64,000 nucleotides of DNA from Candidatus Eiseniibacteriota bacterium (GTDB lineage Bacteria > Eisenbacteria > RBG-16-71-46 > SZUA-252): contig JBBTHR010000019.1 in NCBI GenBank assembly GCA_038060295.1, positions 1,582-65,581 on the forward strand, read 5' to 3'. The notes beneath the pieces are model-generated. The model worked only from the letters and a program-made list of their open reading frames with translations. It did not search any database and had not been told where the DNA came from. The translations under genes were made by a program, and so were the position numbers. Below, piece after piece: positions 32,412-64,000 of this stretch (within the stretch, counting starts at the first letter, position 1; each line of letters opens with the position of its first letter).

Positions 32412-32415
32412 CGCC

Positions 32416-41010: not shown

Positions 41011-41781
41011 CTAACGGGGCGAGACGGTAAGGCTAAGGACCCAGCCGGGCTTGGTCGCTTCCGCGTCCCGGAAGTCCCGATTCTCCCAAGACCAGAGCCG
41101 AGTGAGGGAAGGCTGCAGCGCAAACCGCCCCCACGCGGCCGTCACGCCTACGCCGGTCTCGAGGCCGGATATCCCCGTCATCTGGTAGTAGTGCTCATGG
41201 ACGTAAAGTTTCGATGTGAGCCCCAAGGAGGCCTTGGAGCCGGACAATTCGTGACCCAAGCCGAACGCCCAGTAGCGTCCGCGTCCCTGGTCGACGTCCC
41301 AGTGGACGCTCACCGAGGGCTGGAGCGGCGCGTCGAGGGAGAGGTCAGCGAATACTTCCTGCGATGACTTCCAATCGGGGCGGTTCGGATAGTCCAGGTA
41401 CACGTAGCCGAGGGCTCCGGAGAGCGGCCCGCGCCCCCAATCCCTCTGGACCGTTCCGTCCACTTCGTTCAGCTCGCCACGCGTCTGGTCGAGATTCCCC
41501 CACACGCTCAGCGAGAAGCGATTCAGCCCGCACGTCACCTGAGGCTGGAGCACGGGTCGGCCCTCACTGTAGTCGAGTCCCTGGAACGAGTACCTGGATG
41601 CATAGGTCGCGCTCCATTCGATCCGCGGCCCGGGCTGGGGCGAATCGGCGTCGCGGGGCGTATCCGCGGGGTAGGCGGATCCGGTGCCGTCCTCAAGGCG
41701 GTAGGGCGCGGCCTCCGCCGCGGCGGTCCCGCACAGGATTGTGACGGTGACCAGGAAACGGGCGATCGCGTGCGGGTTCAT
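41011..41781 (-). CDS. Putative outer-membrane beta-barrel protein, secreted
   Basis: A signal peptide (MNPHAIARFLVTVTILCGTAAAEA) and alternating amphipathic strands rich in Tyr, Trp and Gly. The ATG overlaps the TGA of the upstream kinase (ATGA). Confidence 0.45.
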   Translation of the reverse strand: MNPHAIARFLVTVTILCGTAAAEAAPYRLEDGTGSAYPADTPRDADSPQPGPRIEWSATYASRYSFQGLDYSEGRPVLQPQVTCGLNRFSLSVWGNLDQTRGELNEVDGTVQRDWGRGPLSGALGYVYLDYPNRPDWKSSQEVFADLSLDAPLQPSVSVHWDVDQGRGRYWAFGLGHELSGSKASLGLTSKLYVHEHYYQMTGISGLETGVGVTAAWGRFALQPSLTRLWSWENRDFRDAEATKPGWVLSLTVSPR

Positions 41782-43589: not shown

Positions 43590-43593
43590 CGGG

Positions 43594-44742
43594 CTAGCCC
43601 GCGGCCGCCCCGGCGGCCGTCGCGGGCAAGTCGAGACGGAAGGTCGCACCACCGCCGTCCCCGCCCTCGACCGCGATGCTGCCTCCATGCTGCCCCACGA
43701 TCGAGCGCGCGATGGCGAGACTCAGCCCGTGTCCATGGCTGTGGTGCGCGACGTCGGCGACCGCGAACTCCTCGAACAGGTGCGGGAGCAGCTCCGGTGC
43801 GATCCCGGGTCCCCGGTCGGATACCGAGAGGATGGAACGCGAATCGGAGGTCCACGTGCGCACGACCACCGTTTCGCCCTTCGGGCTGACGCGGATCGCG
43901 TTGTCGAGCAGCGCTCCGACGGCCCGCTGCAAATGCTTTGGGTCTCCATTCACCGGAGCGGGATGTTCGATCTCGAGCGCAACCCGGATTCCCGCGCTCT
44001 CGGCCGTCTCGCGAGCACTTTCGATCGCGGCCTGAGCGATCGACCTCAATTCCTGTCGTTCCGGCACGAAGGGGACCGAGCCCGCCTTGAGTTGGCTGAG
44101 GAACGAGACCCTCTCGAAGAGAGCGAGCAGGCGACGCGCGCCCGATTCCACCATGGTCAGGATCCGGCGCTGCTGGTCGGTCACGCCGGGGCTCTCGAGG
44201 AGCAGCGCGATGGGACTCAGAATGACGGTGAGCGGCGTGCGAGTCTCGTGGCTCAGGAGATTGAGCACATCCGTCTTGAGGCGGTCCACCTCCTCGACGG
44301 ACTTGAGGCGGAGGTAGACGCGCACTTTTGCCAACATCTCTTCGGGGTCGAAGGGTTTGACCATGTAGTCATCCGCTCCCGCCGCGTAGCCCTCGAGACG
44401 CTCGGAGGTCATCGCCTTCGCGGAGACCATGATGATCTTGGTCCACGAGAGCCGTGGGTTCGCCCTGAGGCGCCGGCAGGTCTCGTAGCCGTCGATCCCC
44501 GGCATCATGATGTCGAGGAGAACGAGATCCGGTCGGAGTCGATATGTCGCCTCGATGGCCTCTTCACCCGACGCGACGGGCACGAAGTCGTAATCCTGGC
44601 CGAGAATCTTCCGGAGGATCGCGAGATTGCGGGGATTGTCGTCGACTCCGAGAATCAAAGGTTTGATCGACACGGAATTTTTCCTATGGAGGGGGACGGG
44701 GCGGCCCACGTCGGGACTCGATCCACGGACCGGCCGGGTCAT
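43594..44742 (-). CDS. Response-regulator/histidine-kinase hybrid (N-terminal REC, then HisKA-HATPase)
   Basis: LVLLDIMMPGIDG (REC), LSHETRTPL (H-box) and a C-terminal GHGLSLAIARSIV. Confidence 0.75.
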   Translation of the reverse strand: MTRPVRGSSPDVGRPVPLHRKNSVSIKPLILGVDDNPRNLAILRKILGQDYDFVPVASGEEAIEATYRLRPDLVLLDIMMPGIDGYETCRRLRANPRLSWTKIIMVSAKAMTSERLEGYAAGADDYMVKPFDPEEMLAKVRVYLRLKSVEEVDRLKTDVLNLLSHETRTPLTVILSPIALLLESPGVTDQQRRILTMVESGARRLLALFERVSFLSQLKAGSVPFVPERQELRSIAQAAIESARETAESAGIRVALEIEHPAPVNGDPKHLQRAVGALLDNAIRVSPKGETVVVRTWTSDSRSILSVSDRGPGIAPELLPHLFEEFAVADVAHHSHGHGLSLAIARSIVGQHGGSIAVEGGDGGGATFRLDLPATAAGAAAG

Positions 44743-45000
44743 TCATGTTCAGGTATCGGCATCGCGCTCAGGGACGTTTAGCCGGATTCGGATCCTGATT
44801 GACGCACGGACATTCCTGTGTTTGGGTGACGGGCTCGGAGCCAAATCCTCCTTATCTGTATCTGTGCTAAGGCAGCGCGCGCGGGGCGCCGATACATCCG
44901 AGGGTAAACCGTCGACGCCGGGGCACTTGTTCGGGCCAGCAACGGAACCTCGACCACGGGCCCCTACCGAAGTCGTAGGTGCCACTCACGGGAGCGGACT

Positions 45001-47187
45001 TTGGCTAGTGAGTCTCGCGATCACGCTTCAGCGTCATTTCGGTACGTTTCTCCCTACGCCGGCGCGGCAGCCATTGGTGTTGGGACCCTCGTGCTTCTGG
45101 GGTGGCAGTTCGGCAGCCCCCTTCTGAAGAGCATCGTCCCCGGGCTCGTCGCGATGAACCCCGCCACGGCCCTGGGCTTCATCCTCTCTGGTCTCTCCCT
45201 CCGACTCCTGCACTCGGGGCAGAGGTCCGGTCGTTCGTGGGGCATCGGACAGGCCTGTGCCTGGGCCGTCGTAATCCTCGGTTGTCTGAAAGTCGTCGGG
45301 GTCATTGTCGGGTGGGACTCGGGCATCGACCGGCTGCTGTTCTCCGGGAAGTTGAGCGCCGACGCGAGTCTCGTTCCCAATCGGATGGCGCCGAATACCG
45401 CGCTAAACTTCGTGCTCGTCGGCCTGGCCCTGCTCACCTTGAACGTGGAGGTGAAGGGTGGGCACCGTCCATCCAAGTACTTCGCCCTCGTGCCGCTCCT
45501 CCTCTCTCTGCTGGCGTTAACCGGCTATGCGTACGACGTTCGGTCCTTCTATGGTCTCAGCTCCTACATCCCGATGGCTCTCAACACCGCGCTGACCTTC
45601 CTACTCATATCCACCGGCATCCTCCTGGCACATCCGGACCGGGGCCTGACGCGCGTGTTCACGAATGATGACCTCGGCGGCTCTCTTGCGCGGCGGCTGT
45701 TTCCGTTCGCGGTCGGCGCGCTGCTCGTGCTCGGCTGGTTACGTCTTCAGGGAGAGCGGCTCGGCCTCTACGATGCGCAGCTCGGCGTCTCGCTGACCGT
45801 ATTCGTCAGCAGCGTGCTCATGGGAGCCGTGATCTGGACGAGCGCCCACTCCTTGAGCCGGGCCGACGCCGACCGGAGGCGAGCCGCGGATGCCCTGCGG
45901 AGCGCGCATGACGGGCTGGAGCTGCGTGTCCAGGAGCGGACCGCTCAGCTTTGGAACGTCAACCGGGACTTGGAGCGCGAAATCGCCGAGCGCGAACAAG
46001 CGGAGGCGGCGTTGCGCGCGAGCGAGGAGCAGCTCCGCCAGGCGCAGAAGATGGAAGCGATCGGGAGGCTCGCCGGCGGGGTGGCCCACGACTTCAACAA
46101 CATGCTGACGGCGATCATGGGCTACAGCCAGCTCATACGTCTCCGGATGTCGCCGCATGATCCGGCGTACGGCAACACGGAGGAGATCGAGAAGGCCGCG
46201 ACGCGAGCTGCCTCGCTGACCCGCCAACTCCTCGCCTTCAGCCGGCAACAGGTGCTTCAGCCGAGGGTGCTGGACCTCAACGTCCTGATCGGGGAGATCG
46301 ATAAGATGCTGCGGCGTGTGATCGGGTCGGACATCGACCTCCTGACCGCGCCCGGGCCATCGCTCGGCCGCGTGAAAGTCGATCCCGGTCAGGTCGAGCA
46401 GGTACTCCTGAATCTCGTCGTGAACGCCCGGGACGCGATGCCGCGGGGCGGCAAGATCACTATCGAGACCGCGAACGTGGAACTGGACGAGACATACGCC
46501 CGTGGGCGGGTCGGGGTCCGCGCGGGGCGGTACGTCCTGCTCGCCGTGAGCGACACCGGCTGCGGGATCGACTCCGAGACCCAATCGCGAATCTTCGAGC
46601 CGTTTTTCACGACGAAGGAAGCCGGCAAGGGAACGGGCCTCGGCCTCTCGACCGTCTACGGGATCGTGAAGCAGAGCGACGGCCACATCGAGGTCTACAG
46701 CGAACCCGGACGCGGCGCCGCATTCAAGATCTACCTACCGGTGGCCCTGGGGCCTCTGGAGGTGATCGAGTCGTTGAATCCAAGCGTCGGTCCTCGCGAT
46801 GGATCGGAGACCGTGCTCGTGGTGGAGGATGAGGATCTGGTGCGCGCGGTGATCCGAAAATCCCTGGAACTCCACGGCTACAAGGTGATCGAGGCGCGGG
46901 ACGGGAGGGAGGGGCTTGACCTGCTCGAACGGGACTCCACGGTCGTCGATCTCATCGTGACCGACGTGATGCTGCCTCAGATGTCCGGCCTCGAGCTTGC
47001 CCAGCGCGCGGCCCGGCTGAATCGGGATCTCAAAGTCCTCTACATCTCCGGCTACACGGACAAGGCGATCGTCCACCAAGGAGTGCTCGCTGCCGGGGCG
47101 GCCTACCTTCAAAAACCATTCGTGCCCGACGCGCTCGCGCGCAAAGTGCGCGAGGTGTTGGATGGGGCTCGCACCGAGGCCGCCTGA
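45001..47187 (+). CDS. Hybrid sensor histidine kinase with a multi-TM N-terminal sensor, a coiled coil, HisKA-HATPase and a C-terminal REC
   Basis: [14 protein letters not shown] (H-box), [13 protein letters not shown] and a C-terminal REC ([13 protein letters not shown]). The true start may be at the ATG at 45154 because the first 50 codons have low GC3. Confidence 0.7.
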
Positions 47188-47290
47188 TTCGCTGCCGGCG
47201 GCCGCAGCGGGCGCCGGGAACCCCACCGAGGCGCGCTGCCGGATGTCGTTCTCCTCTCGCCCCGCCTGGGGTAGGATGCGCGGTGAACCC

Positions 47291-48070
47291 ATGGCCTTTC
47301 CGAACTTCCGCAACAAGCACGCGCACGAAGCCCTGGTCACACCCCGGGCCTTCCTCGCGTACGCCCGATCGCGGGGCACCGTCCCGAAGGGCTGCCCGCC
47401 CGAGGGGCTCATCATCGCGTACCACCGAAATCTCATGCGGTACGTGCTCCAGCACCATCGAACCCGGAGGGTGAAGGGGTTCTTCGGGGAGATGTTCCTC
47501 CTGCACGAGACCCGCAACCGGGTGGCCATCATCGGAAACTTCGGCATCGGGGCACCCGGTGCCGTCATCCACCTCGAGGAGTTCATCGAATGGGGTGTGC
47601 CGAAGTTCGTTTCCGTCGGCACCGCCGGCGGACTCCAGAAGGGCCTCAAGATTGGTGACCTCGTCCTTTGCGAACGGGCGATCCGCGACGAGGGGTGCTC
47701 CCACCACTACCTCCGGCCCTTGAAGTACGCGTACCCCTCGCCAGCGCTAACGGACCGGGTCCGAGCGGCCCTTCAGGCGGGCCGCCTCAAGTTCACGAGT
47801 GGCACGAGCTGGTCGATCGATACCCCCTACCGCGAGACCGTCTCCGAGGCCCGACGGTACCGGCGCCAGGGTGTGCTCACGGTCGAGATGGAGGCCGCGG
47901 CATTATTCGCCGTGGGGAAGTACCGCAAGGCGCAGGTGGCCTCGCTCTTCTCGATCAGCGATTCTTTGGCCGAACTGCCCTGGGAGCCGAAGTTCCACCT
48001 CCGAAGGAACCAGACCGGGCTCGAGAAAATTTACCGGGTTGCGGTCGAGGCGCTGGCAACACAAGGCTAG
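47291..48070 (+). CDS. Nucleoside phosphorylase (PNP/UDP phosphorylase family 1)
   Basis: GFFGEMFLLHETRNRVAIIGNFGIGAPGAV...VGTAGG...EMEAAALF, the family pattern. Confidence 0.6.
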   Translation: MAFPNFRNKHAHEALVTPRAFLAYARSRGTVPKGCPPEGLIIAYHRNLMRYVLQHHRTRRVKGFFGEMFLLHETRNRVAIIGNFGIGAPGAVIHLEEFIEWGVPKFVSVGTAGGLQKGLKIGDLVLCERAIRDEGCSHHYLRPLKYAYPSPALTDRVRAALQAGRLKFTSGTSWSIDTPYRETVSEARRYRRQGVLTVEMEAAALFAVGKYRKAQVASLFSISDSLAELPWEPKFHLRRNQTGLEKIYRVAVEALATQG

Positions 48071-48107: not shown

Positions 48108-48584
48108 TTATGACTCGGACGCCGCGGAAGCGACTTCAGCCGCGCCGAGGATCTCGATCGCGTCACCCGGCCGGACCGTGCCCGCGCGGAGCACCTTGCC
48201 GAAGATTCCTTCCTCGGGGAAGACGCACTTGCCCGTGAGCTGCATGATCTCGCAGCCGCTGTGGCACTTCTTGCCGATCTGGGTGATCTCGAGAAGCGCG
48301 TCGTTTCCGATCCGAAGCCGCGTGCCGACAGGGAGGGCCTTCAGCACGATCCCACGAGTCGTCAGGTTCTCCGCGAAGTCCCCGTGCTCGACCGTGAGAT
48401 TCCAGAGCGTCCGCGCCCGCGCATAGCTCTCGTCACCCAAGAGCGAGACCTGCCGGTGCCAGGCGCCAGCGTGGGCGTCGCCCTCCAGCCCCCAGTTCTC
48501 GACGAGCGAACCCTCGGCGATTCTCTGCTTTCGCGTGCGCCTCGCTTCCGAGCGGCAGACGGCGACGATGGACGGTTCGTTCAA
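48108..48584 (-). CDS. MOSC-domain protein (YiiM-like)
   Basis: The TTG start has GGAGG 5 nt upstream and overlaps the moeA stop (TTGA). SLVENWGLEGDAHAG...HRQVSLL and C-terminal IGKKCHSGCEI are present. Confidence 0.6.
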   Translation of the reverse strand: MNEPSIVAVCRSEARRTRKQRIAEGSLVENWGLEGDAHAGAWHRQVSLLGDESYARARTLWNLTVEHGDFAENLTTRGIVLKALPVGTRLRIGNDALLEITQIGKKCHSGCEIMQLTGKCVFPEEGIFGKVLRAGTVRPGDAIEILGAAEVASAASES

Positions 48585-49810
48585 GCGCGCCTCCAGGGAA
48601 GGGGGTGGACCCGCACCGGGGATCCGGCCGCCAGCGGGCGGCCCGGTCCTGGGGGGACGACGACGAGACAATCGTTCCCGAGAAACGAGCGGAGGAGATT
48701 CGAGCCCTGCCGTCGGTCGACGGTGACGCGCCAACCGCGTTCGCCCTCTTCCAGGCGCCCACGCAGAAATCGCGTCTTCGACTCGACGCGCGTGACCGGC
48801 GCCGTGAGCCGCGCGATCCACGTCTCGGGCGCTCCATGCGCTTCACCGAGCATCGCGCGAAGGGCGGGGCGCACGTATTCGCAATAGCAGACCACCGTGG
48901 AGGCGGGATTCCCCGGAAGGCCGAAGACCTTCACGCCGCGGCGGCTCCCGAAATAGAGCGGCTTGCCCGGCCTTTGAGCCACGTTCCAGAAAATCGTGCG
49001 CGTCCCGAGCGACGAGAGCGCGGGCCGCACGAGGTCGCGCTCTCCCACTGAAACGCCTCCGGTCGCGACCACGAGGTCGGCGCGCGCGCAGGCGCGCTCC
49101 AGGGCTTTGCGGATGTCAGTCGCCCGATCGCGCGCGTACGTCACGAGTGACGGCGAGATCCGGAACTCCTTCAAGGCCGACGCGAGAAACGCGGCGCTCG
49201 AGTCGTGGACCGCGTAGTCGGGCAACGAGCGCGCAGCCGGCGGGCGGACCTCGCTCCCCGTCACCACGATCGCCACGCGAGGCGCTCGGCGCACCTCGAC
49301 CTGCCGCACGCCGAGGATCGACAGGAGCGCGATCGCTCCCGGCTGGAGGCGCGTCCCTTTCGGGACGATGATGTCGCCGCGGCGGCAATCCTCCGCTGCG
49401 CGCCTCACGTTCCGTCCCGCGCGCACGGGACGCGTCACGAGGAGCGCGCCACCCTCGAGACGCGCCTCCTCCTGTGGCAGAACGGCATCCACGCCCGCCG
49501 GAAGCGGCGCGCCGGTCATGATGCGCACGGCGGCGCCCGACGCGAGGTGCGGGTCGGGTTTCGACCCCGCGAAAATGGCGCGCGGACGGAGCCGCAAACG
49601 AACCGGGCGCGCCCTCGTGGCGCCCCGTGTCGCTCGGCTCGAGAGGGCGTAGCCGTCCATGGAGGATGCCGTGAAGCGGGGTAGGGCGAATGGCGCGCGG
49701 AGATCTCGGATCGTGATCCTCCCATCCGCGTCGGGAAGCCGCACTCGTATGGCCGGCATCGGCCGCGTCCGCGCGAGGATCAGCCGCAGCGCTTTCGCCG
49801 CCGGAATCAC
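48581..49810 (-). CDS. moeA: Molybdopterin molybdotransferase MoeA
   Basis: FTASSMDGYAL and LVVATGGVSVGERD are present. The GTG start overlaps the tauE-like stop (GTGA). Confidence 0.8.
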   Translation of the reverse strand: MIPAAKALRLILARTRPMPAIRVRLPDADGRITIRDLRAPFALPRFTASSMDGYALSSRATRGATRARPVRLRLRPRAIFAGSKPDPHLASGAAVRIMTGAPLPAGVDAVLPQEEARLEGGALLVTRPVRAGRNVRRAAEDCRRGDIIVPKGTRLQPGAIALLSILGVRQVEVRRAPRVAIVVTGSEVRPPAARSLPDYAVHDSSAAFLASALKEFRISPSLVTYARDRATDIRKALERACARADLVVATGGVSVGERDLVRPALSSLGTRTIFWNVAQRPGKPLYFGSRRGVKVFGLPGNPASTVVCYCEYVRPALRAMLGEAHGAPETWIARLTAPVTRVESKTRFLRGRLEEGERGWRVTVDRRQGSNLLRSFLGNDCLVVVPPGPGRPLAAGSPVRVHPLPWRRA

Positions 49811-50559
49811 AGCGCCTTCGCTCCGTTCAGGACCGCCACGACGACGAGCACCGCCCCGAAGACGCGCTGCGTCCACACCGTCGGGAGCCATCGCACGGCG
49901 GCGAACGCCCCGGCGATGGCGCCGACAACCGCGGCGGCGCCGAGCGGGATCCAGAGGTCGAGCACGGGCTCGATGCGGGTCAGGTGCCCCGCGAGACCCG
50001 CGGCGGAGTTGAAGAAGACGAACCCGCTCGTGATCGCGGGGACGGTCTCGAGATCGCCCGCGCCTCGAAGAAGGAGAATGGGGGCGAGGTAGACGCCGCC
50101 ACCGATCCCGGTCATTCCCGCGAGGAGGCCGATCCCGAGGCCGACGATCAGAAGCGCGCCGTTCGACATTCCACCTCGCCCGCCGTCACGCGCGACCGCG
50201 CGGCGGAGCCTCGATCCAAGCAGGAACCGCAGTCCCGCGAGGAGAAGCGCAAACGCGAGGAGGAACAAGAAGTGACGCTCGCGCAGGGGAACAAGCCCGC
50301 CGGCGAACGCCGCGGGGATCGATGTCGCGAGAAGCGGCGCGAGAATGGAGTAGGGAACGCGGCCGGCGCCATGAAAGCTCGCATACGCGCTTCCCGCCAC
50401 GAGGAGATTCAAGCTCAGCACCAGGGGAGGAATCTGGGTATAGGGGACGTCGGTGAGGCTCAGGACCGCTGCGTAGGCGGTGGCGCCGCCGAGGCCGACC
50501 GACGCGTAAGCCGAGGCAATCAGCGCGAAGGCCGGTAGCGTCCAGAGCGGGGCGTTCAT
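49807..50559 (-). CDS. TauE/SafE-family anion exporter embedded in the MoCo operon
   Basis: A 250-aa, 8-TM protein with an internal repeat (GLGGATAYAAVLSL and GIGGGVYLAPILLL). The ATG overlaps the moaC-mogA stop (ATGA). Confidence 0.7.
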   Translation of the reverse strand: MNAPLWTLPAFALIASAYASVGLGGATAYAAVLSLTDVPYTQIPPLVLSLNLLVAGSAYASFHGAGRVPYSILAPLLATSIPAAFAGGLVPLRERHFLFLLAFALLLAGLRFLLGSRLRRAVARDGGRGGMSNGALLIVGLGIGLLAGMTGIGGGVYLAPILLLRGAGDLETVPAITSGFVFFNSAAGLAGHLTRIEPVLDLWIPLGAAAVVGAIAGAFAAVRWLPTVWTQRVFGAVLVVVAVLNGAKAL

Positions 50560-51470
50560 TCGGGGTGCCCCCCGCCGGCAATCATCGCCGCCGCGTGAAG
50601 GAGCGCCGGGAGGAGCGCGGCCAGCGATTCGCGGACCCCCTTGGGACTCCCGGGCAGATTGACGATCAGCGTCCGGCCACGGATCCCCGCGATGCCGCGA
50701 GAGAACATCGCCTTCGGCTCCCGCGCCTGGCCGAAGCCGCGCGCCGCCTCCGCGATGCCGGGCGCCTCGCGCTCGATCACCGCGCGGGTGGCCTCCACGG
50801 TGACGTCCCGCGGCCCCAATCCGGTGCCACCCGTCGTCAGCACGAGATCGCACGCGCCTTCGTCGCAAAGCCGGCGCAGCGTCCGATCGATCACCTCCTG
50901 GTCGTCGGGAATCGACTCCGGCGCCGACGCCGCGACGCCATGCGCTCCCAGGATCTCCACGATGGCCGCGCCCGAGGCGTCCTTCCGGCGGCCCGCGGCC
51001 ACGCTGTCGGAGATCACCACGACCGCGGCGCGGATCGGCCTCTTCGGCGCCTCGCCTCGGTCGGACGCGCCCCCACGCTTCTCGAGGAGCCTGACATGCA
51101 CGATCTCCAAGTCGTCGTCGAGCGGCTTGAGCATGTCGTAGAGGGTGAGCGCGGCGACGGTCGCGGCCGTGAGCGCCTCCATCTCGACGCCGGTCGCCCA
51201 CACCGCCGACACCGAGGCCGTGACCGCGATCGCCTCGGGTCGGATCTCGAACGCGACCTCGACGTGCGTGAGGGGAATGGGATGGCAGAGCGGGATCAGC
51301 TCAGGCGTTCGCTTCGCCGCCAGGAGACCCGCCGCGCGCGCCGCTTCGAGCACGTTTCCTTTGGGCACGCTGCCATTCCGCACGCGCTCGATCGTCTCCG
51401 GCCGGGCGCGCAGGAGCGCCTCGGCGCGCGCCGTGCGGTGGGTGCTCGGCTTCCCGGAGATGTCGCGCAT
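50556..51470 (-). CDS. moaCB: MoaC-MogA/MoaB fusion (cyclic pyranopterin monophosphate synthase fused to molybdopterin adenylyltransferase)
   Basis: The N-terminal half is MoaC (LIPLCHPIPLTHVEVAF...GVEMEALTAATVAALTLYDM). The C-terminal half is MogA/MoaB (AAVVVISDSVA...VLTTGGTGLGPRDVT...NLPGSP). Confidence 0.8.
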   Translation of the reverse strand: MRDISGKPSTHRTARAEALLRARPETIERVRNGSVPKGNVLEAARAAGLLAAKRTPELIPLCHPIPLTHVEVAFEIRPEAIAVTASVSAVWATGVEMEALTAATVAALTLYDMLKPLDDDLEIVHVRLLEKRGGASDRGEAPKRPIRAAVVVISDSVAAGRRKDASGAAIVEILGAHGVAASAPESIPDDQEVIDRTLRRLCDEGACDLVLTTGGTGLGPRDVTVEATRAVIEREAPGIAEAARGFGQAREPKAMFSRGIAGIRGRTLIVNLPGSPKGVRESLAALLPALLHAAAMIAGGGHPE

Positions 51471-52577: not shown

Positions 52578-53183
52578 ATGCCGGTTGGCGGCGTGGTCCT
52601 GGCGGCGGGCAGCTCCGCCCGGATGACTCGGCCCAAGCTGCTCCTCCCCTTTAGGGGCAAGCCCCTGGTCTGCCATGCCGTCGCGTGCATGGCCGGGGCG
52701 CCGGTCGCGCCCGTCGTCTGCGTCCTGGGCCACCACGCCCGGGACCTGGAAGCAATACTACGCTCGTACCCCTTCCCACAGCCCCTCCTCCTCCGGAACA
52801 ATGACGACTACCAGTCGGGACGCGCCTCTTCCGTGCGGACAGGGATCGAATCGCTGCCCGAGGAGTGCGCCGCCGCGGTCTTCCTCCCGGGGGACATACC
52901 GCTCCTCCGCTCGGAGGATGTCGCCGCGCTCGTGGCGCGGTTCGAGCGTACCGGCGCGTCCGTCGTCGTGGCGGTGGACGAGCAGGGGGAGCGGGCACAC
53001 CCCGTTCTCTTCGCGCGCGATCTCTTTCCGCGCCTCGCGGCGCTGTCGGGAGACGAGAGCGGCCAGGGGCTGATCCGGGAATACTGGGCGCAAGCCGAGA
53101 AGGTGACCGTGTCGCGATCGCGTTGCGTGGACGTCGACACCGAAGAGGACTACCGGCGCCTCCTCGCCGGGGAGGAAGGCTGA
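52578..53183 (+). CDS. mocA: MobA-like nucleotidyltransferase, probably MocA (Mo-MCD synthesis)
   Basis: GGVVLAAGSSARM...KLLLPFRGKPLV. Its position ahead of xdhC and the CoxL-type subunits supports the call. Confidence 0.65.
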   Translation: MPVGGVVLAAGSSARMTRPKLLLPFRGKPLVCHAVACMAGAPVAPVVCVLGHHARDLEAILRSYPFPQPLLLRNNDDYQSGRASSVRTGIESLPEECAAAVFLPGDIPLLRSEDVAALVARFERTGASVVVAVDEQGERAHPVLFARDLFPRLAALSGDESGQGLIREYWAQAEKVTVSRSRCVDVDTEEDYRRLLAGEEG

Positions 53184-53184
53184 G

Positions 53185-54024
53185 GTGCGGGACTTCTACG
53201 ATCGTGTCACCCGACTGCTGACGGAACACGTCTCCTTCGCGGTCGCCACCATCGTCAAGGTGGGCGGGTCGAGCCCGCGCGATCTCGGCGCGAAGATCAT
53301 CGTATTCCGGGCCGGCACGGTGGAGGGAACGCTGGGGGGCGGGAAACTCGAAGCCCAGGTGATCCGCGACGCGCTGGAATGCCTCGGCCGGCGTTCCGCC
53401 GCGACCAAGTCGTACTGGCTTTCCGACGAAGGGCTTGGAATGAAGTGCGGCGGCACGGTCGAAGTCTACTTCGAACCGGTCACTCCCGCGGCGCGACTCG
53501 TGATCTTCGGAGGCGGCCACGTGGGCCGCGCCATCGCGCGCCTGGCACCGTCGGCCGGCTTCGATGTCGAAGTCGTGGACGACCGCCCCGAGCACCTCGA
53601 CGCCGCGGCGTATCCCCCCGGAGTCCGGCTTCGGCCCACCGATCCGGAATTTCGCGACGGGTTCGAACCCCTTTCTTCCGAGGACTACGCCGTCGTCGTC
53701 ACGCGCGACGCGGCCACGGACGCCGCCCTCGCGGGCCGCCACGCACCCCACTGCGCCTATGTCGGCGTGATGGGGAGCCAGGCCAAGCGGGCCTACATGG
53801 AGCGCACGCTGGCCTCGACGGGAATCTCGAAGCAGGTCTTCGCCCGTGTGCGCTGCCCGATGGGTGTCGACATTGGGGCGGACACGCCGGAGGAGATCGC
53901 CGTGAGCGTCGTGGCCGATCTGATCTCCCTCCGCGCTTCGCGGCGGTCGTCGGCCGCCAAGGCCGCGGGCGAAGCCTCCCCTCGCAAGACGCGCGCCACC
54001 GGGAAGAAGCGGGTCGTCCGATGA
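53185..54024 (+). CDS. xdhC: XdhC/CoxI-family molybdenum hydroxylase maturation factor
   Basis: The XdhC_CoxI N-domain (FAVATIVKVGGSSPRDLGAKII) plus the Rossmann C-domain (LVIFGGGHVGRAIARLA). Confidence 0.75.
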   Translation: MRDFYDRVTRLLTEHVSFAVATIVKVGGSSPRDLGAKIIVFRAGTVEGTLGGGKLEAQVIRDALECLGRRSAATKSYWLSDEGLGMKCGGTVEVYFEPVTPAARLVIFGGGHVGRAIARLAPSAGFDVEVVDDRPEHLDAAAYPPGVRLRPTDPEFRDGFEPLSSEDYAVVVTRDAATDAALAGRHAPHCAYVGVMGSQAKRAYMERTLASTGISKQVFARVRCPMGVDIGADTPEEIAVSVVADLISLRASRRSSAAKAAGEASPRKTRATGKKRVVR

Positions 54025-54833
54025 AGCCAATCGCGGTCGTTCGAGGAGCAGGAGACCTCGCCACGGCCGTCGGCCGAAGGCTTCATCTCTGCGGCTTCTC
54101 CGTCGCCCATCTCGAGATCGCCCAGCCCACCGTCATCCGCCGCACCGTCGCGTTCGCATCGGCCGTGTTTCGAGGGCAAGTCACGGTCGAAGGCGTGGAA
54201 GCCGTCTTGGCTCCGGACGTCGCCGCGGCGCGATGGCTCCTGGAGCAGGGAAGAGTCGCCGTGCTCATCGATCCCGAAGCGGCAAGCATCGAGTCGCTCC
54301 GACCTGTCCTGGTCGTCGACGCCATCCTCGCCAAGAGGAACCTGGGGACGCGCCTCGACATGGCCCCGCGCGTCGTGGCCCTCGGCCCCGGTTTCGAGGC
54401 TGGCGTGGACGTTCACGCCGTGGTGGAAACCTGCCGCGGACACGATCTGGGACGGGTCTACACGTCGGGCGGGGCGCGGCCAGACACCGGTGTTCCGGGC
54501 GCGATCGGAGGCGTCGGCGCGGAACGGGTCCTCCGCGCCCCGGCGGATGGCACGATTCGCCCGTCGAAAGACATCGGGCAGATGGTCAAGCCCCAGGAGC
54601 TCGTCGCCGAAGTCGACGGCGTGCCGCTCCGATCGACGATCGGCGGCGTGCTTCGCGGGATACTCCACTCCGGCCTTTCTGTGTTCAAGGGCCAGAAGGT
54701 GGCCGACGTGGATCCCCGCGGAGACCCCTCGCTCTGCTTCACGATTTCCGACAAGGCCAACGCGGTCGCGGGCGGTGTTCTCGAAGCGGCATTTCGCGAG
54801 GGCGCCGGTCGGTCCCTTGTGACCATGGAGTGA
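54021..54833 (+). CDS. Second Rossmann-type accessory protein, resembling YqeB/EF2563-family molybdenum-hydroxylase system proteins
   Basis: MKPIAVVRGAGDLATAVGRRLHLCGFSVAHLEIAQP. The ATG overlaps the xdhC stop (ATGA). The family assignment is from memory of the N-terminal pattern and is not verified. Confidence 0.45.
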   Translation: MKPIAVVRGAGDLATAVGRRLHLCGFSVAHLEIAQPTVIRRTVAFASAVFRGQVTVEGVEAVLAPDVAAARWLLEQGRVAVLIDPEAASIESLRPVLVVDAILAKRNLGTRLDMAPRVVALGPGFEAGVDVHAVVETCRGHDLGRVYTSGGARPDTGVPGAIGGVGAERVLRAPADGTIRPSKDIGQMVKPQELVAEVDGVPLRSTIGGVLRGILHSGLSVFKGQKVADVDPRGDPSLCFTISDKANAVAGGVLEAAFREGAGRSLVTME

Positions 54834-54839
54834 ACTGAC

Positions 54840-55715
54840 ATGGCGATGCCGGCATTCCAGTTTCATCGTCCCCGCCGACTCGAGGATGCCCTGGCCCTCC
54901 TCGGCGACGCGGGAGCGGACGGGCTGGCGAAAGCGGGAGGCACCGATGTGATGGTGCTCCTGAAGCACGCCGCGGTCGCGCCGCGAGTGATCGTGGGGTT
55001 GTCGGCCCTGCCGGAGCTGAAGGGGATTCGCCTGGAGAATGGCGCCGTCTCGATCGGCGCCGGCACGACCATCGCGGAACTGGAGTCGGATCCGCTCCTG
55101 ACCCGCCACGCGCGTGGCCTCGTCGACGCCGCTCACCGCATGGCGACGGTGCAGATCCGCACGGTCGCCACCGCCGGGGGCAACCTGGCATCCGCCGCGG
55201 CCTGCGGCGATCTGGCGCCGGTCTTGATCGCCCTCGGGGCCACGCTCCACCTCCGCTCCTCGCGCGGGAAGCGCGTCCTGCCGCTATCCGATTTCTTCAC
55301 CGGCCCGCGCACGACGGTGCTTGCTCCCGGAGAGCTCATCACGCGCCTTCAGATCCCGGCCGCGGAGCCCGGGGCCGCTTCCTCCTATGTGAAATTCGGC
55401 TATCGCGGTGGCTCGCAGATCGCCGTGGTGTCGGCGGCCGTGTCGCTCGTCCACGAGAATGGAGCGGCGAAGCGGGTTCGCCTCGTTCTCGGGGCGGTGG
55501 CGCCGGTTCCGTTCAGCGTCAAGGGCGCCTCCGTTCTGGTGGGGCGTCCGGTCGAAGGGCCCGCGCTCGACGCGGCGTGCGCCGCGGCGGCCTCCGAGTG
55601 CCGTCCGATCTCGGACATCCGCGGCAGCGAGTCCTATCGGCGAGCCGTGGTCCCGGTCATCGCGCGCCAGGCACTGGAGCTGGCGTGGCGGCGGAGCAGA
55701 GGAATTGAATCCTAA
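54840..55715 (+). CDS. Molybdenum hydroxylase FAD-binding (medium, CoxM/XdhB-like) subunit
   Basis: GGTDVMVLLK...IGAGTTIAELE...TAGGNLASAAACGDLAPVLIALGA. Confidence 0.8.
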   Translation: MAMPAFQFHRPRRLEDALALLGDAGADGLAKAGGTDVMVLLKHAAVAPRVIVGLSALPELKGIRLENGAVSIGAGTTIAELESDPLLTRHARGLVDAAHRMATVQIRTVATAGGNLASAAACGDLAPVLIALGATLHLRSSRGKRVLPLSDFFTGPRTTVLAPGELITRLQIPAAEPGAASSYVKFGYRGGSQIAVVSAAVSLVHENGAAKRVRLVLGAVAPVPFSVKGASVLVGRPVEGPALDAACAAAASECRPISDIRGSESYRRAVVPVIARQALELAWRRSRGIES

Positions 55716-58557
55716 CGTCGAGCAGAGCCGGACAACGGCGACCGAAGCGACGGAAATCCTCCTCAGGCTCCGCGTGAATCGGCGCGACGTCTCGGTGGCC
55801 GCGCGCCCGAACGCGACCCTTCTCTCCGTCCTGCGGGACACGCTCCAGATGACCGGCACCAAGTGCGGCTGCGGCGAGGGAGACTGCGGAGCCTGCACCG
55901 TGCTCCTCGACGGCGAACAGGTGAACTCCTGTCTCTTCCTCGCGGCGGAGGCGCAGGGGACCGAGATCACGACGATCGAGGGCCTGTCCCCGAATGGCGC
56001 CCTCCATCCGGTTCAGAAGGCGTTCGTCGAGACCGGTTCGATCCAGTGCGGTTTCTGCAGTCCCGGAATGATCCTGTCGGCGAAGGCGCTCCTCGATCGA
56101 AATCCCGACCCGACCGACGAGGAAATCCGGAACGCGCTCGCCGGAAACCTCTGCCGCTGCACGGGGTACGTGCGGATCTTGGAAGCGGTGCGGCGCGTGG
56201 CGCACCCCGAGCTGCCGCGGCGCGTGGAGGAGGGCGAGAGCGACGACACCTTCTCCGTCGTGGGGAAGAGCGTTCCCAAGAAGGACGCCGCCGACAAGGC
56301 GACGGGGAAGGCGACCTACACCGGCGACTTCCGCCTCCCCGGGATGCTCCGTGGGAAGCTGCTCGGGAGCCCGCATCCCCACGCCAAGATTCTCTCCGTG
56401 GACACCAGCGAGGCGGAAGCGCTCCCCGGCGTCCACGCGGTCATCACGGCGAAGGACGTCCCGGACGTTCCGTACGGCGTGAGCCCGGCCCGTTACGACG
56501 AGCAGGTGCTCGCCGGCGACCGGGTCCGCCACGTGGGCGACGCCGTCGCTGCCGTGGCCGCCGAGGACGACGACACGGCGGAACGCGCCCTGGAGCTGAT
56601 CCGCGTCGAGTACGAGATCCTCCCCGGCGTCTTCGGGATCGAGGAGGCGCTCGACCCTGGCGCGCCGCAACTGCACGACGCCTATCCGCGGAACATCAAC
56701 ACCGAGATCCATCACGATTTCGGCGACGTCGACAAGGCGTTCGCCGAGGCGGACCTCGTCCGGGAGGACGTCTTCCGGGGCCAGCGGGCCATGCAGATCC
56801 CGCTTGAGCCGCACGTTTCGCTCGCGCGCGTCGAGTCGGACGGCCGCATCACCATCTGGACCGCGAACCAGGCGCCGCACTACGTCCAGCATCAGCTCTC
56901 GCGCGTGCTGGACGTGCCGATGGGCCGGATCCGAGTCGTGAAGCCGGCCATGGGGGGTGGATTCGGCGGAAAGGCCGAGGCCACCAGCCTCGATTTCTGC
57001 TCCGTGATCCTGGCGAAGAAGACGGGACGCCCCGTGCTCATGGAGTTCTCCCGGAAGGAGACCTTCCTGCACGGCCGGGGACGCCACGCGCAGGTCATCC
57101 GGCTCAAGACGGGCGTGCGCAAGGACGGCACGCTCCTCGCGGTCCAGGCGGACATCACGCTCGACGGCGGGGCCTATACCAGTTTCGGAATCATCACCTC
57201 GTACTATTCGGGCGTCATGCTCACGACGCCGTACCGCCTCCCCAACTTCCGGTTCGACGGGAAGCGCGTCTACACGAACCTCCCGGCCTGCGGGGCGATG
57301 CGAGGAAACGGCACGCCACAGCCGCGATTCGCCTTCGAGAGCCAGCTCGACCTGATCGCCGCGGATCTCGGCCTCGATCCGATCGAATTGCGACGGCGGA
57401 ACGCGCTTCACACGAACGATCTCACGGTGAACGAGTTCCAGATCACTTCGTGCGAGTTCCAGCAGTGCCTCGATCTCGTGGAGGAACGATCGGGCTGGAA
57501 GGAGAAGCGGGGAAAGCTCCCCTTCGGGAAGGGGATCGGAATCGCCTGCGGCTGTTTCATCTCGGGCGCGGGGTACCCGATCTACCGGAGTTCGTTCCCC
57601 CATTCCTCGGCGATCGTGCGACTGAGCGAGGACGGTACCTCGGCCATGGTCTTCGCGGGCGCCCCCGACATCGGCCAGGGATCCGACACGGTCCTTTGCC
57701 AGATGGCCGCGGAGGAACTTGGCCTGCGCTACGAGGACGTGAGCATCATCTCGAGCGACTCGGCCGTCACTCCGACCGACCTCGGGGCCTACGCGTCGCG
57801 CATCACCTACTTCGCGGGCAACGCGGTTCGAGACGCCGCGGCCGCCGCGAGGCGCGCCGTGGCGGAGGTCGTGGCGGAGGAGTGGGGCCTTCCGGTGGAG
57901 GAAGTCTCCTTCCGGAATGGGCATTTCCACTCGCCGGACGGCTCCAGAACCCGCTCGATCCAGGAGGCCGCCGCGCTTGCCTTCGGCAGGCGCGGACCGG
58001 TCGTCGGCAAGGGGGAGTATTCACCACCGCCTCTCGGGGGAAAATTCAAGGGGGCTCCGATCGGAACGTCGCCGGCCTACTCCTTCTGCGCGCAGGTGGC
58101 GGAAGTCGAAGTCGACACCGAGACCGGCACCGTTCGGGTGACCGACTTCTACGACGCCCACGACTGCGGAACCGTCATCAATCCCATGAACCTCCACGGA
58201 CAGGTGGAGGGATCGCTGGTCATGGGGATGGGCGAGAGCCTCTGGGAAGAAGTGATTCACAAGGACGGCAGGATCGTGAATCCGAACCTGCACGACTACC
58301 TGATCCCCACGGCCGCCGACGCGCCGCGCATCCATTCGTTCGTCGTGAAGTCGTACGACCCGGGTGGCCCGTTCGGCGCCAAAGAGGTCGGCGAAGGGGC
58401 GTCGCTCCCCGTGATGGGGGCGGTGGCCAATGCCGTGGCGAACGCGATCGGCGTCCGCCTGACCGAGTTGCCGATCACGCCGGAGAAGGTGCTGCGCGCC
58501 CTGGGAAAGATACCCCCGGACGCGGAGGGCCCCGGCACGGCGGTCTGTCGACTGTGA
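55705..58557 (+). CDS. Fused [2Fe-2S] small subunit plus molybdopterin-binding large subunit of a xanthine-oxidase-family hydroxylase
   Basis: The TTG start has an AGAGGAA SD upstream. The N-terminal ferredoxin domains (CGCGEGDCGACTV and CGFCSPGM...CRCTGY) continue directly into the Mo-cofactor domains. The protein is about 950 aa. The first 99 codons of the track ORF 55408-58557 are frame read-through over the FAD subunit. Confidence 0.8.
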   Translation: MNPNVEQSRTTATEATEILLRLRVNRRDVSVAARPNATLLSVLRDTLQMTGTKCGCGEGDCGACTVLLDGEQVNSCLFLAAEAQGTEITTIEGLSPNGALHPVQKAFVETGSIQCGFCSPGMILSAKALLDRNPDPTDEEIRNALAGNLCRCTGYVRILEAVRRVAHPELPRRVEEGESDDTFSVVGKSVPKKDAADKATGKATYTGDFRLPGMLRGKLLGSPHPHAKILSVDTSEAEALPGVHAVITAKDVPDVPYGVSPARYDEQVLAGDRVRHVGDAVAAVAAEDDDTAERALELIRVEYEILPGVFGIEEALDPGAPQLHDAYPRNINTEIHHDFGDVDKAFAEADLVREDVFRGQRAMQIPLEPHVSLARVESDGRITIWTANQAPHYVQHQLSRVLDVPMGRIRVVKPAMGGGFGGKAEATSLDFCSVILAKKTGRPVLMEFSRKETFLHGRGRHAQVIRLKTGVRKDGTLLAVQADITLDGGAYTSFGIITSYYSGVMLTTPYRLPNFRFDGKRVYTNLPACGAMRGNGTPQPRFAFESQLDLIAADLGLDPIELRRRNALHTNDLTVNEFQITSCEFQQCLDLVEERSGWKEKRGKLPFGKGIGIACGCFISGAGYPIYRSSFPHSSAIVRLSEDGTSAMVFAGAPDIGQGSDTVLCQMAAEELGLRYEDVSIISSDSAVTPTDLGAYASRITYFAGNAVRDAAAAARRAVAEVVAEEWGLPVEEVSFRNGHFHSPDGSRTRSIQEAAALAFGRRGPVVGKGEYSPPPLGGKFKGAPIGTSPAYSFCAQVAEVEVDTETGTVRVTDFYDAHDCGTVINPMNLHGQVEGSLVMGMGESLWEEVIHKDGRIVNPNLHDYLIPTAADAPRIHSFVVKSYDPGGPFGAKEVGEGASLPVMGAVANAVANAIGVRLTELPITPEKVLRALGKIPPDAEGPGTAVCRL

Positions 58558-58609: not shown

Positions 58610-59875
58610 ATGATCGAACCCGCGGCATCGGACCTGATCTACGAGTGGAACCAAGGGAACGATCCCGGAGACCGCCCGGCCGGAGTGGTGGAGGTCGCCG
58701 ACGAGACGCTCCGAGACGGGCTCCAGTGTCCCTCCGTGGCGGATCCGTCCATTGAGCAGAAGATCCAAATGCTCCATTTCCAGGCGCGCCTCGGCGTGCA
58801 CGGGGTGGATCTCGGACTGCCCGGCGCCGGCCCGCGTGTCCAGGCTTCGGTGCTCGCCCTGGCCAGGGAGATGGTCTCCGCCAAACTGCCCATGGAGCCC
58901 TACTGCGCGGCGCGGACGCACGTCGCCGACATCGACCCGATCATCGACGTGGTGCAGAAGACCGGGCTCGCGATCCACGCGGCGACCTTCCTCGGCTCGA
59001 GCCCCATTCGCCACTACGCCGAAGGGTGGGATCTGGACCGGCTCCTGAGGACGACGGAGGAGGCGGTCGGTTATGCGGTCCGGCACGGTCTCCAGGTCAT
59101 GTTTGTGACCGAGGACACGACGCGGGCGAAGCCGGAGATGCTCCGTCAGATCTACACGGCGGCGATCCATGCCGGTGCGAATCGAATCTGTGTCGCCGAC
59201 ACGGTCGGCTACGTGACGCCGCAGGGCATCACACGGCTGATCCGGTTCATTCGCTCCGTCGTGGATGCGACGGGTGCGAAGATCCCCATCGATTTCCACG
59301 GGCACCGGGATCGTGGCCTCTGCATCGCCAACGTGCTCGCGGCCTTCGCCGCCGGAGCCGACCGGGCGCATGGGACGATCCTCGGCATCGGCGAGCGGGT
59401 GGGGAACGCGCCGCTCGATCTTCTCCTGATCAATCTGAAGCTCCTCGGATGGCTCGACCGGGATCTGACGGCGCTGCCGGAGTATTGCGACCTGGTCTCG
59501 CGCGCCTGCGGCGTGCCGATCCCGCCGAGCTACCCGGCGTTCGGTCGGGACGCGTTCCGCACCGCGACGGGTGTGCACGCGGCGGCCGTGATCAAGGCGA
59601 AGAAGAAGGGGGACGCGGCCCTGGCGGACCAAGTCTACTCGAGCATCCCGGCCAGCATGCTGGGACTCACACAGGTGATCGATGTGGGACCGATGTCGGG
59701 CGAATCGAACGTGGTCTACTGGCTGGAGCATCACGGGTACGAAGCCGACCGCCCTCTCGTGGAGCACCTCTTCCGATTGGCGAAGGAGCGGGATCGCGTC
59801 TTCGAGAGCACGGAGTTGGAGGCGGCAATCGCGAAATTCCGCGCGTCGCGGAGCGTCGCGGGGTCGGCGTCATAG
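58610..59875 (+). CDS. HMGL-like / 2-isopropylmalate-homocitrate synthase family (DRE-TIM metallolyase) protein lacking the LeuA regulatory domain
   Basis: VEVADETLRDGLQ...IDFHGHRDRGLCIANVLAAFAAGADRAHGTILGIGERVGN (the HxH metal site). Confidence 0.7.
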   Translation: MIEPAASDLIYEWNQGNDPGDRPAGVVEVADETLRDGLQCPSVADPSIEQKIQMLHFQARLGVHGVDLGLPGAGPRVQASVLALAREMVSAKLPMEPYCAARTHVADIDPIIDVVQKTGLAIHAATFLGSSPIRHYAEGWDLDRLLRTTEEAVGYAVRHGLQVMFVTEDTTRAKPEMLRQIYTAAIHAGANRICVADTVGYVTPQGITRLIRFIRSVVDATGAKIPIDFHGHRDRGLCIANVLAAFAAGADRAHGTILGIGERVGNAPLDLLLINLKLLGWLDRDLTALPEYCDLVSRACGVPIPPSYPAFGRDAFRTATGVHAAAVIKAKKKGDAALADQVYSSIPASMLGLTQVIDVGPMSGESNVVYWLEHHGYEADRPLVEHLFRLAKERDRVFESTELEAAIAKFRASRSVAGSAS

Positions 59876-62407: not shown

Positions 62408-64000
62408 ATGTCGAACACCAAAGAGGTCAATCCCGTGAGTTCCTCGGTAGAACCGATCTCCTCCACGGTCACTCCGGCGGACATCGAAGCGATGATGACC
62501 CGTTTCGGTTACTCGCCCGAGACGCGGCAGATCATCGCGACGGAGAACCTGCTGCCGGCCGGGCTGCTCAGTCGGTTGCACGCGACGTATCCGCAGCACT
62601 CCGGGCTTCTCGAGCGGGGGAAGACCCTGTTCAGCGATTCCGATCACTACTCCGAGCTGGAGGGGTTCCGGCGTGTCGCCGAGATCCTGGAGCAGCACGG
62701 AATCCACCTCGGCGACATGACCGAGCGGGAGTTGTTCGTCGAAGTGTACCGCTTCAAGGTGTCGCGTCACGCGCTCAACAGTATCAACTGGAAGAACTAC
62801 CAGCGCGATTCGATGTTCCAGCTCATGTTCCCGCAGCCGGGAATGATGAAGGAGGAACTGCTCGACGCGTACACCGCCACGGCATCACCCGAAGAGCGGA
62901 CACGCATCGCCAGCGAGTACGTTCACAAGACCAACCCCCACGATGGCCATCAACTCCTGAACAAGCCGTGGATCGAACAGGACGACGGCGGGATCGACGT
63001 CGTCGAAGGCAGTCAGCACAAGTACCCGCAGTGCCAGCTCGTCTTCGACCGGACGACGCAGGAGTGTTTCGCCTTTTGCACCTACTGCTTCCGTCACGCG
63101 CAGGTCCGCGGTGACGAGGACATGTTCGTGCAGGAGGACGTCGCGCAGATCCACGACTACCTTCGCGGCCACCCTGAAGTCACCGATCTGCTCATCACCG
63201 GCGGGGACGCGGGATACATGCCCGTCGAACGACTGCGGCAGTACGTCATGCCGATCGTCGAAGACCGCCGCTTGCTGCAGGTGCGCACGGTCCGCCTCGG
63301 CTCACGCATGCTGACGTATCAGCCCGAGAGGGTCCTCACGCGGCAGTACGAGAAGATGCTGGCCCTGTTCGACGTCGTGCACGACAACGGGGTTCAATTG
63401 TCGTGGATGGCGCATTTCTCCACGCCACGGGAGCTGTTGAATCCCAGCACGATCGCCGCCATCCGCAGGCTCCAGCGACACGGCGTCGTGGTGCGCAGCC
63501 AAAGCCCCATCATGAACCACATCAGCCTGTTCACCGATGACCGGGGCCACGTGGACGTCCAGCGTTCGGCGCAGAACTGGATCGACCTGGCCAACGTGCT
63601 TGGGACGCTGCTGGTGCGCTTCCATTCGATGTACTGCGCCCGCGCGACCGGCGAGCATCACTATTTCACCGCGTCGCTGGCCGACATCGAGAAGATCGCC
63701 AACCTGGTCTACCGTTCGCTCTCATCGCTCAACCGGCCGTCGAGGTACATCACGATGACCACGTCCGCCGGCAAGGTCTCCATCCTCGGGACAGCCGAAG
63801 TCGGCGGGCAGACGGCCTTCGCGCTGAAGTTCAACGAGAGCCGGAACATGGCATGGATGGATCGCGTATTCCTCGCCAAGTACGACAGCCAGACGAACCG
63901 CGTCGACTTCCTGACGCCCTTCGACACGTCCGAGTTCTTCTTCGAGAAGGAGCTGCACGAGATCGAGCAGAAGCTGATCGACGTGCACCATCGGCGCCGG
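62408..64000 (+). CDS. KamA-family radical-SAM/PLP aminomutase (lysine 2,3-aminomutase-like) with an N-terminal extension of about 75 aa. It is 3'-partial (no stop in the window) and absent from the supplied ORF track.
   Basis: Translated by hand; GGAG lies 8 nt before the ATG. The C-x3-C-x2-C motif (CFAFCTYCFRH) follows HKYPQCQLVFDRT. LITGGDAGYMP, VRLGSRMLTYQPERV and the PLP-Lys region TMTTSAGK match KamA landmarks. At least 531 codons are open. Confidence 0.8.
   Translation, partial: MSNTKEVNPVSSSVEPISSTVTPADIEAMMTRFGYSPETRQIIATENLLPAGLLSRLHATYPQHSGLLERGKTLFSDSDHYSELEGFRRVAEILEQHGIHLGDMTERELFVEVYRFKVSRHALNSINWKNYQRDSMFQLMFPQPGMMKEELLDAYTATASPEERTRIASEYVHKTNPHDGHQLLNKPWIEQDDGGIDVVEGSQHKYPQCQLVFDRTTQECFAFCTYCFRHAQVRGDEDMFVQEDVAQIHDYLRGHPEVTDLLITGGDAGYMPVERLRQYVMPIVEDRRLLQVRTVRLGSRMLTYQPERVLTRQYEKMLALFDVVHDNGVQLSWMAHFSTPRELLNPSTIAAIRRLQRHGVVVRSQSPIMNHISLFTDDRGHVDVQRSAQNWIDLANVLGTLLVRFHSMYCARATGEHHYFTASLADIEKIANLVYRSLSSLNRPSRYITMTTSAGKVSILGTAEVGGQTAFALKFNESRNMAWMDRVFLAKYDSQTNRVDFLTPFDTSEFFFEKELHEIEQKLIDVHHRRR

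Follow-up and report, generated by a model that had tools for sequence, protein, structure and literature searches.

Of the ways in which organisms use selenium (Se), the one that supplies a labile Se ligand to some molybdenum hydroxylases is the least understood, and YqeB is its best genetic marker. Its family, TIGR03309, was defined by restriction to selD-positive genomes (PMC2276186), and the short-form founders of the family are EF2563 (HP1) of Enterococcus faecalis and CD3478 of Clostridioides difficile (PMC2276186, PMC2432076). We analyzed a 64,000-nucleotide stretch of DNA (the window) from a metagenome-assembled genome (MAG) of Candidatus (Ca.) Eiseniibacteriota (GCA_038060295.1, contig JBBTHR010000019.1, positions 1,582 to 65,581 of the forward strand), in which an earlier note, made from the sequence alone, had compared the product of a 270-aa gene downstream of xdhC with YqeB/EF2563. 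The gene encodes, with near certainty on the basis of profile matches and conserved residues, a genuine short stand-alone YqeB (TIGR03309/EF2563/HP1), and it lies in a compact operon between xdhC and the genes for a molybdenum hydroxylase.

The two founder proteins are stand-alone polypeptides of about 270 aa and belong to the same hidden Markov model (HMM) family as the window protein. Their hosts are Firmicutes, either anaerobic or facultative, that have SelD, YqeC, and purine-degrading client enzymes, whereas the window comes from a Ca. Eisenbacteria MAG of high GC content from groundwater, which encodes a cbb3 oxidase and an HcrA-like client; neither the window nor the flanks that were read contain selD or yqeC. 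In E. faecalis, a labile-Se protein of ~30 kDa has been described, which is the size of HP1/HP2 (PMC2432076). On xanthine and urate, a C. difficile yqeB deletion behaved like a selD mutant, whereas deletion of yqeC had no phenotype (PMC11448449); a YqeB that is needed and a YqeC that is dispensable fit the yqeC-less locus described here. The selD, yqeB, and yqeC genes of C. difficile are scattered in the genome and not linked (PMC11448449). The xanthine dehydrogenase (XDH) and DOPDH of Clostridium sporogenes both need SelD (bioRxiv 10.1101/2025.04.24.650524).

Two further systems resemble the xdhC–yqeB pair. Escherichia coli YqeB (b2875, 541 aa, "XdhC-CoxI family protein YqeB") is one polypeptide, whereas the window has two genes coupled by an ATGA junction; mocA is adjacent in both. 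Next to the E. coli gene is yqeC, and the surrounding purine/urate cluster also contains xdhD, ygfK, and ssnA; none of these genes occurs in the window. XdhC of Rhodobacter capsulatus acts in maturation and is encoded together with its client, and the window XdhC belongs to the same Pfam family; however, YqeB is not an XdhC, and the window XdhC scored below both curated XdhC equivalog cutoffs (146 bits vs. 161.6 for TIGR02964, and 205 vs. 350 for NF045664). Neumann and colleagues are said to have reported in 2006 that the R. capsulatus protein binds the molybdenum cofactor (Moco) and takes part in its insertion.

The yqeB open reading frame (ORF) begins with an ATG at 54021, ends with the stop codon at 54831–54833 on the plus strand, and encodes a 270-aa protein whose N-terminus, MKPIAVVRGAGDLATAVGRRLHLCGF, is the one quoted in the earlier note. 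The coupling to xdhC proposed there was also correct: at the ATGA junction (54021–54024), the yqeB ATG (54021–54023) overlaps the xdhC stop codon TGA (54022–54024). A codon-usage model trained on the long genes of the window picked the boundaries of both genes exactly, and identical boundaries were called independently on eight contigs (ENA and Logan assemblies); the contig of the window originates from Hainich groundwater assemblies. The start residue of the window protein matched the start of its close homologues.

Family membership was examined with the NCBIfam and Pfam models. The protein matched TIGR03309 (matur_yqeB, an equivalog model) at 335 bits, with a curated cutoff of 220 and E = 2.9e-100, and the alignment of residues 6–258 to model positions 2–254 of 256 was close to full length. 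None of the other NCBIfam models matched it. The Pfam scan of the protein gave no family at E ≤ 1, XdhC_C (PF13478) included, so the outcome that the earlier note had named as fatal to its own suggestion, a best match merely to XdhC_C, did not occur. In an alignment of 85 family sequences, which takes in the C-terminal half of E. coli YqeB and the protein of Eubacterium barkeri, all 32 invariant and all 31 near-invariant (≥95%) residues were present in the window protein, as were the family motifs GxGD (N-terminal), PTVIRR, DAxxAK, GPGF, ETxRGH, KxGDxDPR, and CFTISDK. The last of these contains Cys239, the sole conserved cysteine, which was kept in 83 of the 85 members. The window protein was ~51–52% identical to the C-terminal half of E. 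coli YqeB, 55% identical to the protein of E. barkeri, an organism with a biochemically proven Se-Mo enzyme, and 47–62% identical to the homologues from the 80 best yqeB loci in GTDB. An identical sequence is present in GenBank (MEK7347621.1) under the name [quoted passage not shown]. The likeness to YqeB is thus borne out, and because the NCBI pipeline had already made the assignment public, nothing is new here about the identity of the gene.

We also considered whether the gene might be only a duplicate of the XdhC Rossmann domain, an XdhC_C paralogue with no YqeB identity. The N-terminal beta-alpha-beta motifs are similar, and there was a weak tblastn match (E = 1.5) to E. coli YqeB residues 102–139. 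However, alignment of YqeB with the XdhC profile by hhalign gave a probability of only 20% and was limited to 36 columns that cover the beta-alpha-beta motif, and the C-terminal beta domain of YqeB is absent from XdhC. With TIGR03309 matched over its full length and PF13478 not matched, we ruled out this candidate as almost inconceivable.

The earlier note had reasoned that xdhC already contains both XdhC domains and that the downstream gene is therefore a separate factor. Both domains are present (PF02625 at residues 12–77 and PF13478 at residues 105–246), and yqeB is a distinct ORF, but the two genes are not unrelated. By tblastn, residues 2–253 of E. coli YqeB aligned to window xdhC with 31% identity, and residues 257–522 aligned to window yqeB with 51% identity, in the same order as in the window. 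Because E. coli YqeB is collinear with both genes, xdhC and yqeB are a split counterpart of the fused E. coli protein. Such fusions are common: among 1.84 billion cluster representatives searched, 620 were YqeB relatives at E ≤ 1e-30, and many of these were 450–600 aa long, with an extra region attached to a terminal YqeB part. An XdhC-YqeB fusion is also present in Haloarcula (Haft & Self, PMC2276186).

An AF2 model of the window protein, made with a 42-sequence alignment, had a mean confidence score (pLDDT) of 92 and a predicted template-modeling score (pTM) of 0.89. It consisted of an N-terminal Rossmann-like alpha/beta domain, a beta-rich domain of the barrel-sandwich type, and a C-terminal helix after Cys239. 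In the N-domain, G9 and G11 are invariant, D12 is present in 81 of the 85 family members, and E32, at the end of strand 2, is likewise present in 81. The GxGxxA motif together with Glu32 reads as a dinucleotide-binding fingerprint. In a Foldseek comparison, no PDB structure matched the model globally (TM < 0.3), and the local matches were only to barrel-sandwich (biotinyl/lipoyl-like) domains and Rossmann proteins; because the matches were only local, the fold gave no functional assignment. The barrel-sandwich matches agree with the resemblance to AccB noted for C. difficile YqeB (PMC11448449). When the PDB was searched by sequence with the 42-sequence profile, no match was better than E = 0.09, the matches were to generic Rossmann motifs only, and no solved structure of any YqeB family member was recovered.

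These structural features could be read to mean that the protein has a function unrelated to Moco, for example as a carrier of the biotinyl/lipoyl type or as an NAD(P)-dependent enzyme whose place in the operon is incidental; the local Foldseek matches, the fingerprint, and the AccB resemblance would all accord with such a role. We regard it as very improbable, because the linkage of YqeB to XdhC, MocA, YqeC, and molybdenum hydroxylases recurs across phyla, YqeB is fused to XdhC in E. coli, forms of 450–600 aa with an extra N-terminal region are common, and the phenotype of the C. difficile yqeB deletion is purine-specific (PMC11448449). A role for YqeB in Moco maturation together with XdhC is, in our judgment, highly probable.

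The genes of the module are listed in Table 1. They form an operon in the order mocA-xdhC-yqeB-FAD subunit-FeS/Mo subunit and, upstream of it, a complete divergent operon for Moco biosynthesis. From mocA through the gene for the molybdenum subunit the genes are tightly packed, with the ATGA overlap and otherwise gaps or overlaps of 1–11 nt. Scanning the operon for promoters and terminators gave no useful information. No YqeC domain is present in the window MocA (201 aa), which scored 139 bits with TIGR03310, below the cutoff of 186.

Table 1 Genes of the yqeB operon and the divergent Moco-biosynthesis operon in the window
Gene or product	Position	Strand	Matches and remarks
MOSC-domain protein	48108..48584	-	PF03473; last gene of the Moco operon
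moeA	48581..49810	-	409 aa; MoeA_N, MoCF_biosynth, MoeA_C
TauE/SafE-family permease	49807..50559	-	PF01925; inside the Moco operon
moaC/moaB fusion	50556..51470	-	NF002947, 384 bits (cutoff 285)
moaA	51473..52438	-	TIGR02666, 323 bits (cutoff 284); first gene of the divergent Moco operon
mocA-like Moco cytidylyltransferase (MobA-like NTP transferase)	52578..53183	+	PF12804; first operon gene
xdhC (XdhC-family Moco chaperone)	53185..54024	+	279 aa; PF02625 XdhC_CoxI, PF13478 XdhC_C
yqeB	54021..54833	+	TIGR03309, 335 bits; third operon gene
FAD-binding medium subunit, CoxM/CutM-like	54840..55715	+	PF00941, PF03450
Fused [2Fe-2S]/molybdopterin large subunit	55705..58557	+	950 aa; Fer2, Fer2_2, Ald_Xan_dh_C, MoCoBD_1, MoCoBD_2
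HMGL-like protein (isopropylmalate/homocitrate-synthase-like)	58610..59875	+	PF00682; directly after the Mo subunit

The module is conserved in relatives. Three loci (L088, L090, and L092) encode YqeB proteins 69–72% identical to that of the window and keep the module among unrelated flanking genes. The molybdenum subunit is better conserved than YqeB, because its identity in the clade relatives is 82–88%. The HMGL-like gene follows the molybdenum subunit in the window, L088, and L090, and is absent from L092. A scan of the GTDB genomes found no relative above 61% identity, the value for the nearest two, a Thermoanaerobaculia MAG (L009) and an Acidobacteria MAG (L011). Both keep the order mocA-xdhC-yqeB; in L009 the FAD and molybdenum subunits follow yqeB, and at L011 only 1.4 kb of contig remains beyond yqeB. 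An approximate neighbor-joining tree placed the window, L088, L090, L092, L009, and L011 together in one clade. The TauE/SafE permease and MOSC-domain genes sit within the Moco operon in the window and are conserved there in L088, L090, and L092; no link of TauE/DUF81 or MOSC to selenium or molybdate transport was found in PMC5322559.

The FeS/Mo protein of the operon, a subunit of a xanthine-oxidase-family hydroxylase, is the presumed client enzyme of the maturation genes. By its molybdenum subunit, its closest relative is the 4-hydroxybenzoyl-CoA reductase of Thauera aromatica (1RM6): the best PDB match was the alpha subunit 1RM6_A at 596 bits, the next best scored 381, and the score with TIGR03194 was 956.7 bits, just under the cutoff of 994.55. 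The window enzyme differs from the Thauera reductase in that its FeS subunit is fused to the N-terminus of the molybdenum subunit and its flavoprotein is CoxM-like. The FAD subunit scored 117 with TIGR03195, the model for HcrB-type beta subunits, against a cutoff of 404, and its best PDB match was CutM (1FFU_C, 141 bits). HcrB itself (1RM6_B) matched at only 56 bits, its alignment started only at residue 157 and was shifted in register by ~38 residues, and the FAD subunit does not have the insertion expected of HcrB. In HcrB, this insertion is the loop that bears its extra [4Fe-4S] cluster. Because the flavoprotein is CoxM/CutM-like and has no HcrB insertion, we class the enzyme as an HcrA-like hydroxylase and discard the idea of a true 4-hydroxybenzoyl-CoA reductase. 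The combination of an HcrA-like molybdenum subunit and fused FeS part with a CoxM/CutM-like FAD subunit is unusual.

We propose a model, which we consider fairly probable as a whole, in which short-form YqeB and XdhC mature Moco and YqeB helps to install a labile ligand on the molybdenum, which is Se in the characterized family. The divergent operon would make Mo-molybdopterin (Mo-MPT), and MocA would add cytidine monophosphate (CMP) to give the cytosine dinucleotide form. XdhC would then hold the cofactor, and YqeB, as the physical partner of XdhC, would help to place a labile terminal chalcogen on the molybdenum before insertion into the apo-hydroxylase. In the characterized family this chalcogen is Se derived from SelD. 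YqeB could act by nucleotide-type binding through its N-domain and by a persulfide or perselenide on Cys239. We infer this biochemical step, the use of Se rather than sulfur here, and the roles of Cys239 or of the nucleotide-binding-like N-domain; for Se rather than sulfur in the window organism, we lean only slightly toward Se.

The gene neighborhoods bear on that choice. Searches of the window by tblastn with E. coli SelD and YqeC gave only noise (best E values 0.8 and 2.4), and HMMs built from 20 SelD and 55 YqeC sequences had no match at E ≤ 10 among all six-frame window ORFs of at least 60 aa, in agreement with the earlier note, which had seen neither gene in the window. Pfam annotation of the ~50 window genes gave no selenium-related family, and the Pfam gene tables for ~4.4 kb beyond the 5′ end and ~8.3 kb beyond the 3′ end of the window listed no selD or yqeC. 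An Rfam scan of the window gave zero matches, with no Moco riboswitch and no SECIS element. In the five clade relatives, the neighbor search covered 10 kb around yqeB, or less where contigs end; the 55-sequence YqeC HMM had no match at E ≤ 10 in L088, L090, and L092, and L009 and L011 also had no yqeC nearby. Among the 80 best yqeB loci in GTDB, YqeC was present within 10 kb in 55 and SelD in 20, and both counts are lower bounds because some of these loci are on short contigs. This proximity confirms that the YqeB family is linked to selenium metabolism. At many GTDB loci (L010, L013, L014, L016, L017, L019, L021, L027, L036, L037, L060, and others), the YqeC and MocA matches lay in the same stop-to-stop ORF of ~450–550 codons, which suggests that YqeC-MocA fusions are frequent beside yqeB.

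Several observations weigh against the proposed model. To our knowledge, no member of the YqeB family has a known biochemical activity. The presumed client appears to fall outside the known Se-dependent hydroxylases: its molybdenum subunit scored 554 bits with TIGR03311 (Se_dep_XDH; cutoff 830) and 468 bits with TIGR03313 (cutoff 1102), and the nicotinate dehydrogenase 3HRD was only a distant PDB match. In the 64-kb window and the flanks that were read, there are no selD, yqeC, SirA/YedF-like, selA, selB, selU, or cysteine-desulfurase genes, and a tRNA scan of the window found no tRNA at all, hence no tRNA-Sec. Neither yqeC nor selD was near yqeB in any of the six members of the window clade. 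The signature of the Se cofactor is SelD, YqeB, and YqeC jointly (Zhang 2008, PMC2432076; Peng 2016, PMC5029168), and about 80% of the organisms with this cofactor are anaerobes (PMC5029168), whereas the window encodes a cbb3 oxidase.

An alternative is that YqeB in the window clade is Se-independent and serves as a general XdhC partner for cytosine-dinucleotide Moco, aiding the sulfuration or insertion of a cofactor with an ordinary Mo=S ligand; the family name would then over-predict selenium. The contrast between 0 of 6 clade members and the 55 and 20 of 80 GTDB loci accords with this explanation, as does the cbb3 oxidase encoded in the window. The module also looks self-contained, with a MOSC-domain protein included; in eukaryotic Moco sulfurases, the sulfur is carried by a domain of this type. 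In addition, YqeB alone is no signature, and some homologues may act in processes unrelated to Se (Peng et al., PMC5029168; Zhang et al., PMC2432076). However, the window protein lies firmly inside the SelD-linked subfamily, as judged by its identity to the GTDB-locus homologues and its full set of invariant residues, whereas the SelD-unlinked homologues of Zhang et al. are only ~33% identical (PMC2432076). Genomes that have YqeB only, such as that of Thermomicrobium roseum, are still SelD-positive (PMC5029168, Table S1). Because the three genes are unlinked in C. difficile and yqeC is dispensable there (PMC11448449), absent neighbors do not exclude Se use, just as assignment to the family does not prove it; yqeC may sit elsewhere in the genome, as in C. 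difficile. We therefore consider Se-independence a serious alternative but an unlikely one.

Under the model of YqeB-assisted ligand installation, a further proposal is possible, although we hold it only tentatively and think it rather doubtful. The module, by which we mean Moco biosynthesis, mocA-xdhC-yqeB, and the HcrA-like hydroxylase with its CoxM-like flavoprotein, as found in Ca. Eisenbacteria and in the Acidobacteriota-type genomes L009 and L011, might represent a new class of Se-dependent molybdenum hydroxylase in oxygen-respiring groundwater bacteria, matured by YqeB without YqeC. If so, the labile-Se cofactor would reach beyond the purine and nicotinate enzymes of anaerobic Firmicutes. 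The value of the locus lies in the split xdhC/yqeB pair, a compact yqeC-less module that is conserved in uncultured relatives, and a client that seems to lie beyond the known Se-dependent classes. Should complete genomes of the clade prove to carry selD, YqeB function could be probed with the module as a small, portable system; if they lack it, the name of the YqeB family would over-predict selenium dependence.

The remainder of the window contains several other gene groups. The cbb3 oxidase genes begin at 3–1628 (full gene at L095 2025–4247) with CcoN and CcoO fused in a 740-aa ORF (COX1 and FixO), followed by ccoP, ccoG, FixH, a DsbD_2 protein, the CcoI P-type ATPase, and CcoS. The region 25794–31301 encodes a GcvT-like aminomethyltransferase, two FAD amine-oxidase/phytoene-desaturase-like proteins, and a Rieske ring-hydroxylating oxygenase alpha subunit, and may specify a demethylation or amine-oxidation pathway. 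It is followed, on the minus strand at 31317–33256, by an arsenic-resistance set consisting of an ArsR-type regulator, a low-molecular-weight (LMW)-phosphatase-type ArsC, and an ACR3/SBF-family transporter. Four hybrid histidine kinase/response-regulator genes (38131–47187; PAS, CHASE4, Hpt) are densely packed directly upstream of the Moco module, and after this run comes a nucleoside phosphorylase-family gene (PNP_UDP_1; 47162–48070). At the 3′ end, from 62408 to 64000 and onward (L094), a gene for a 537-aa protein with no Pfam domain heads an operon that continues past the window end with CoA-transferase A and B subunits, a class-III aminotransferase, and a thiolase.

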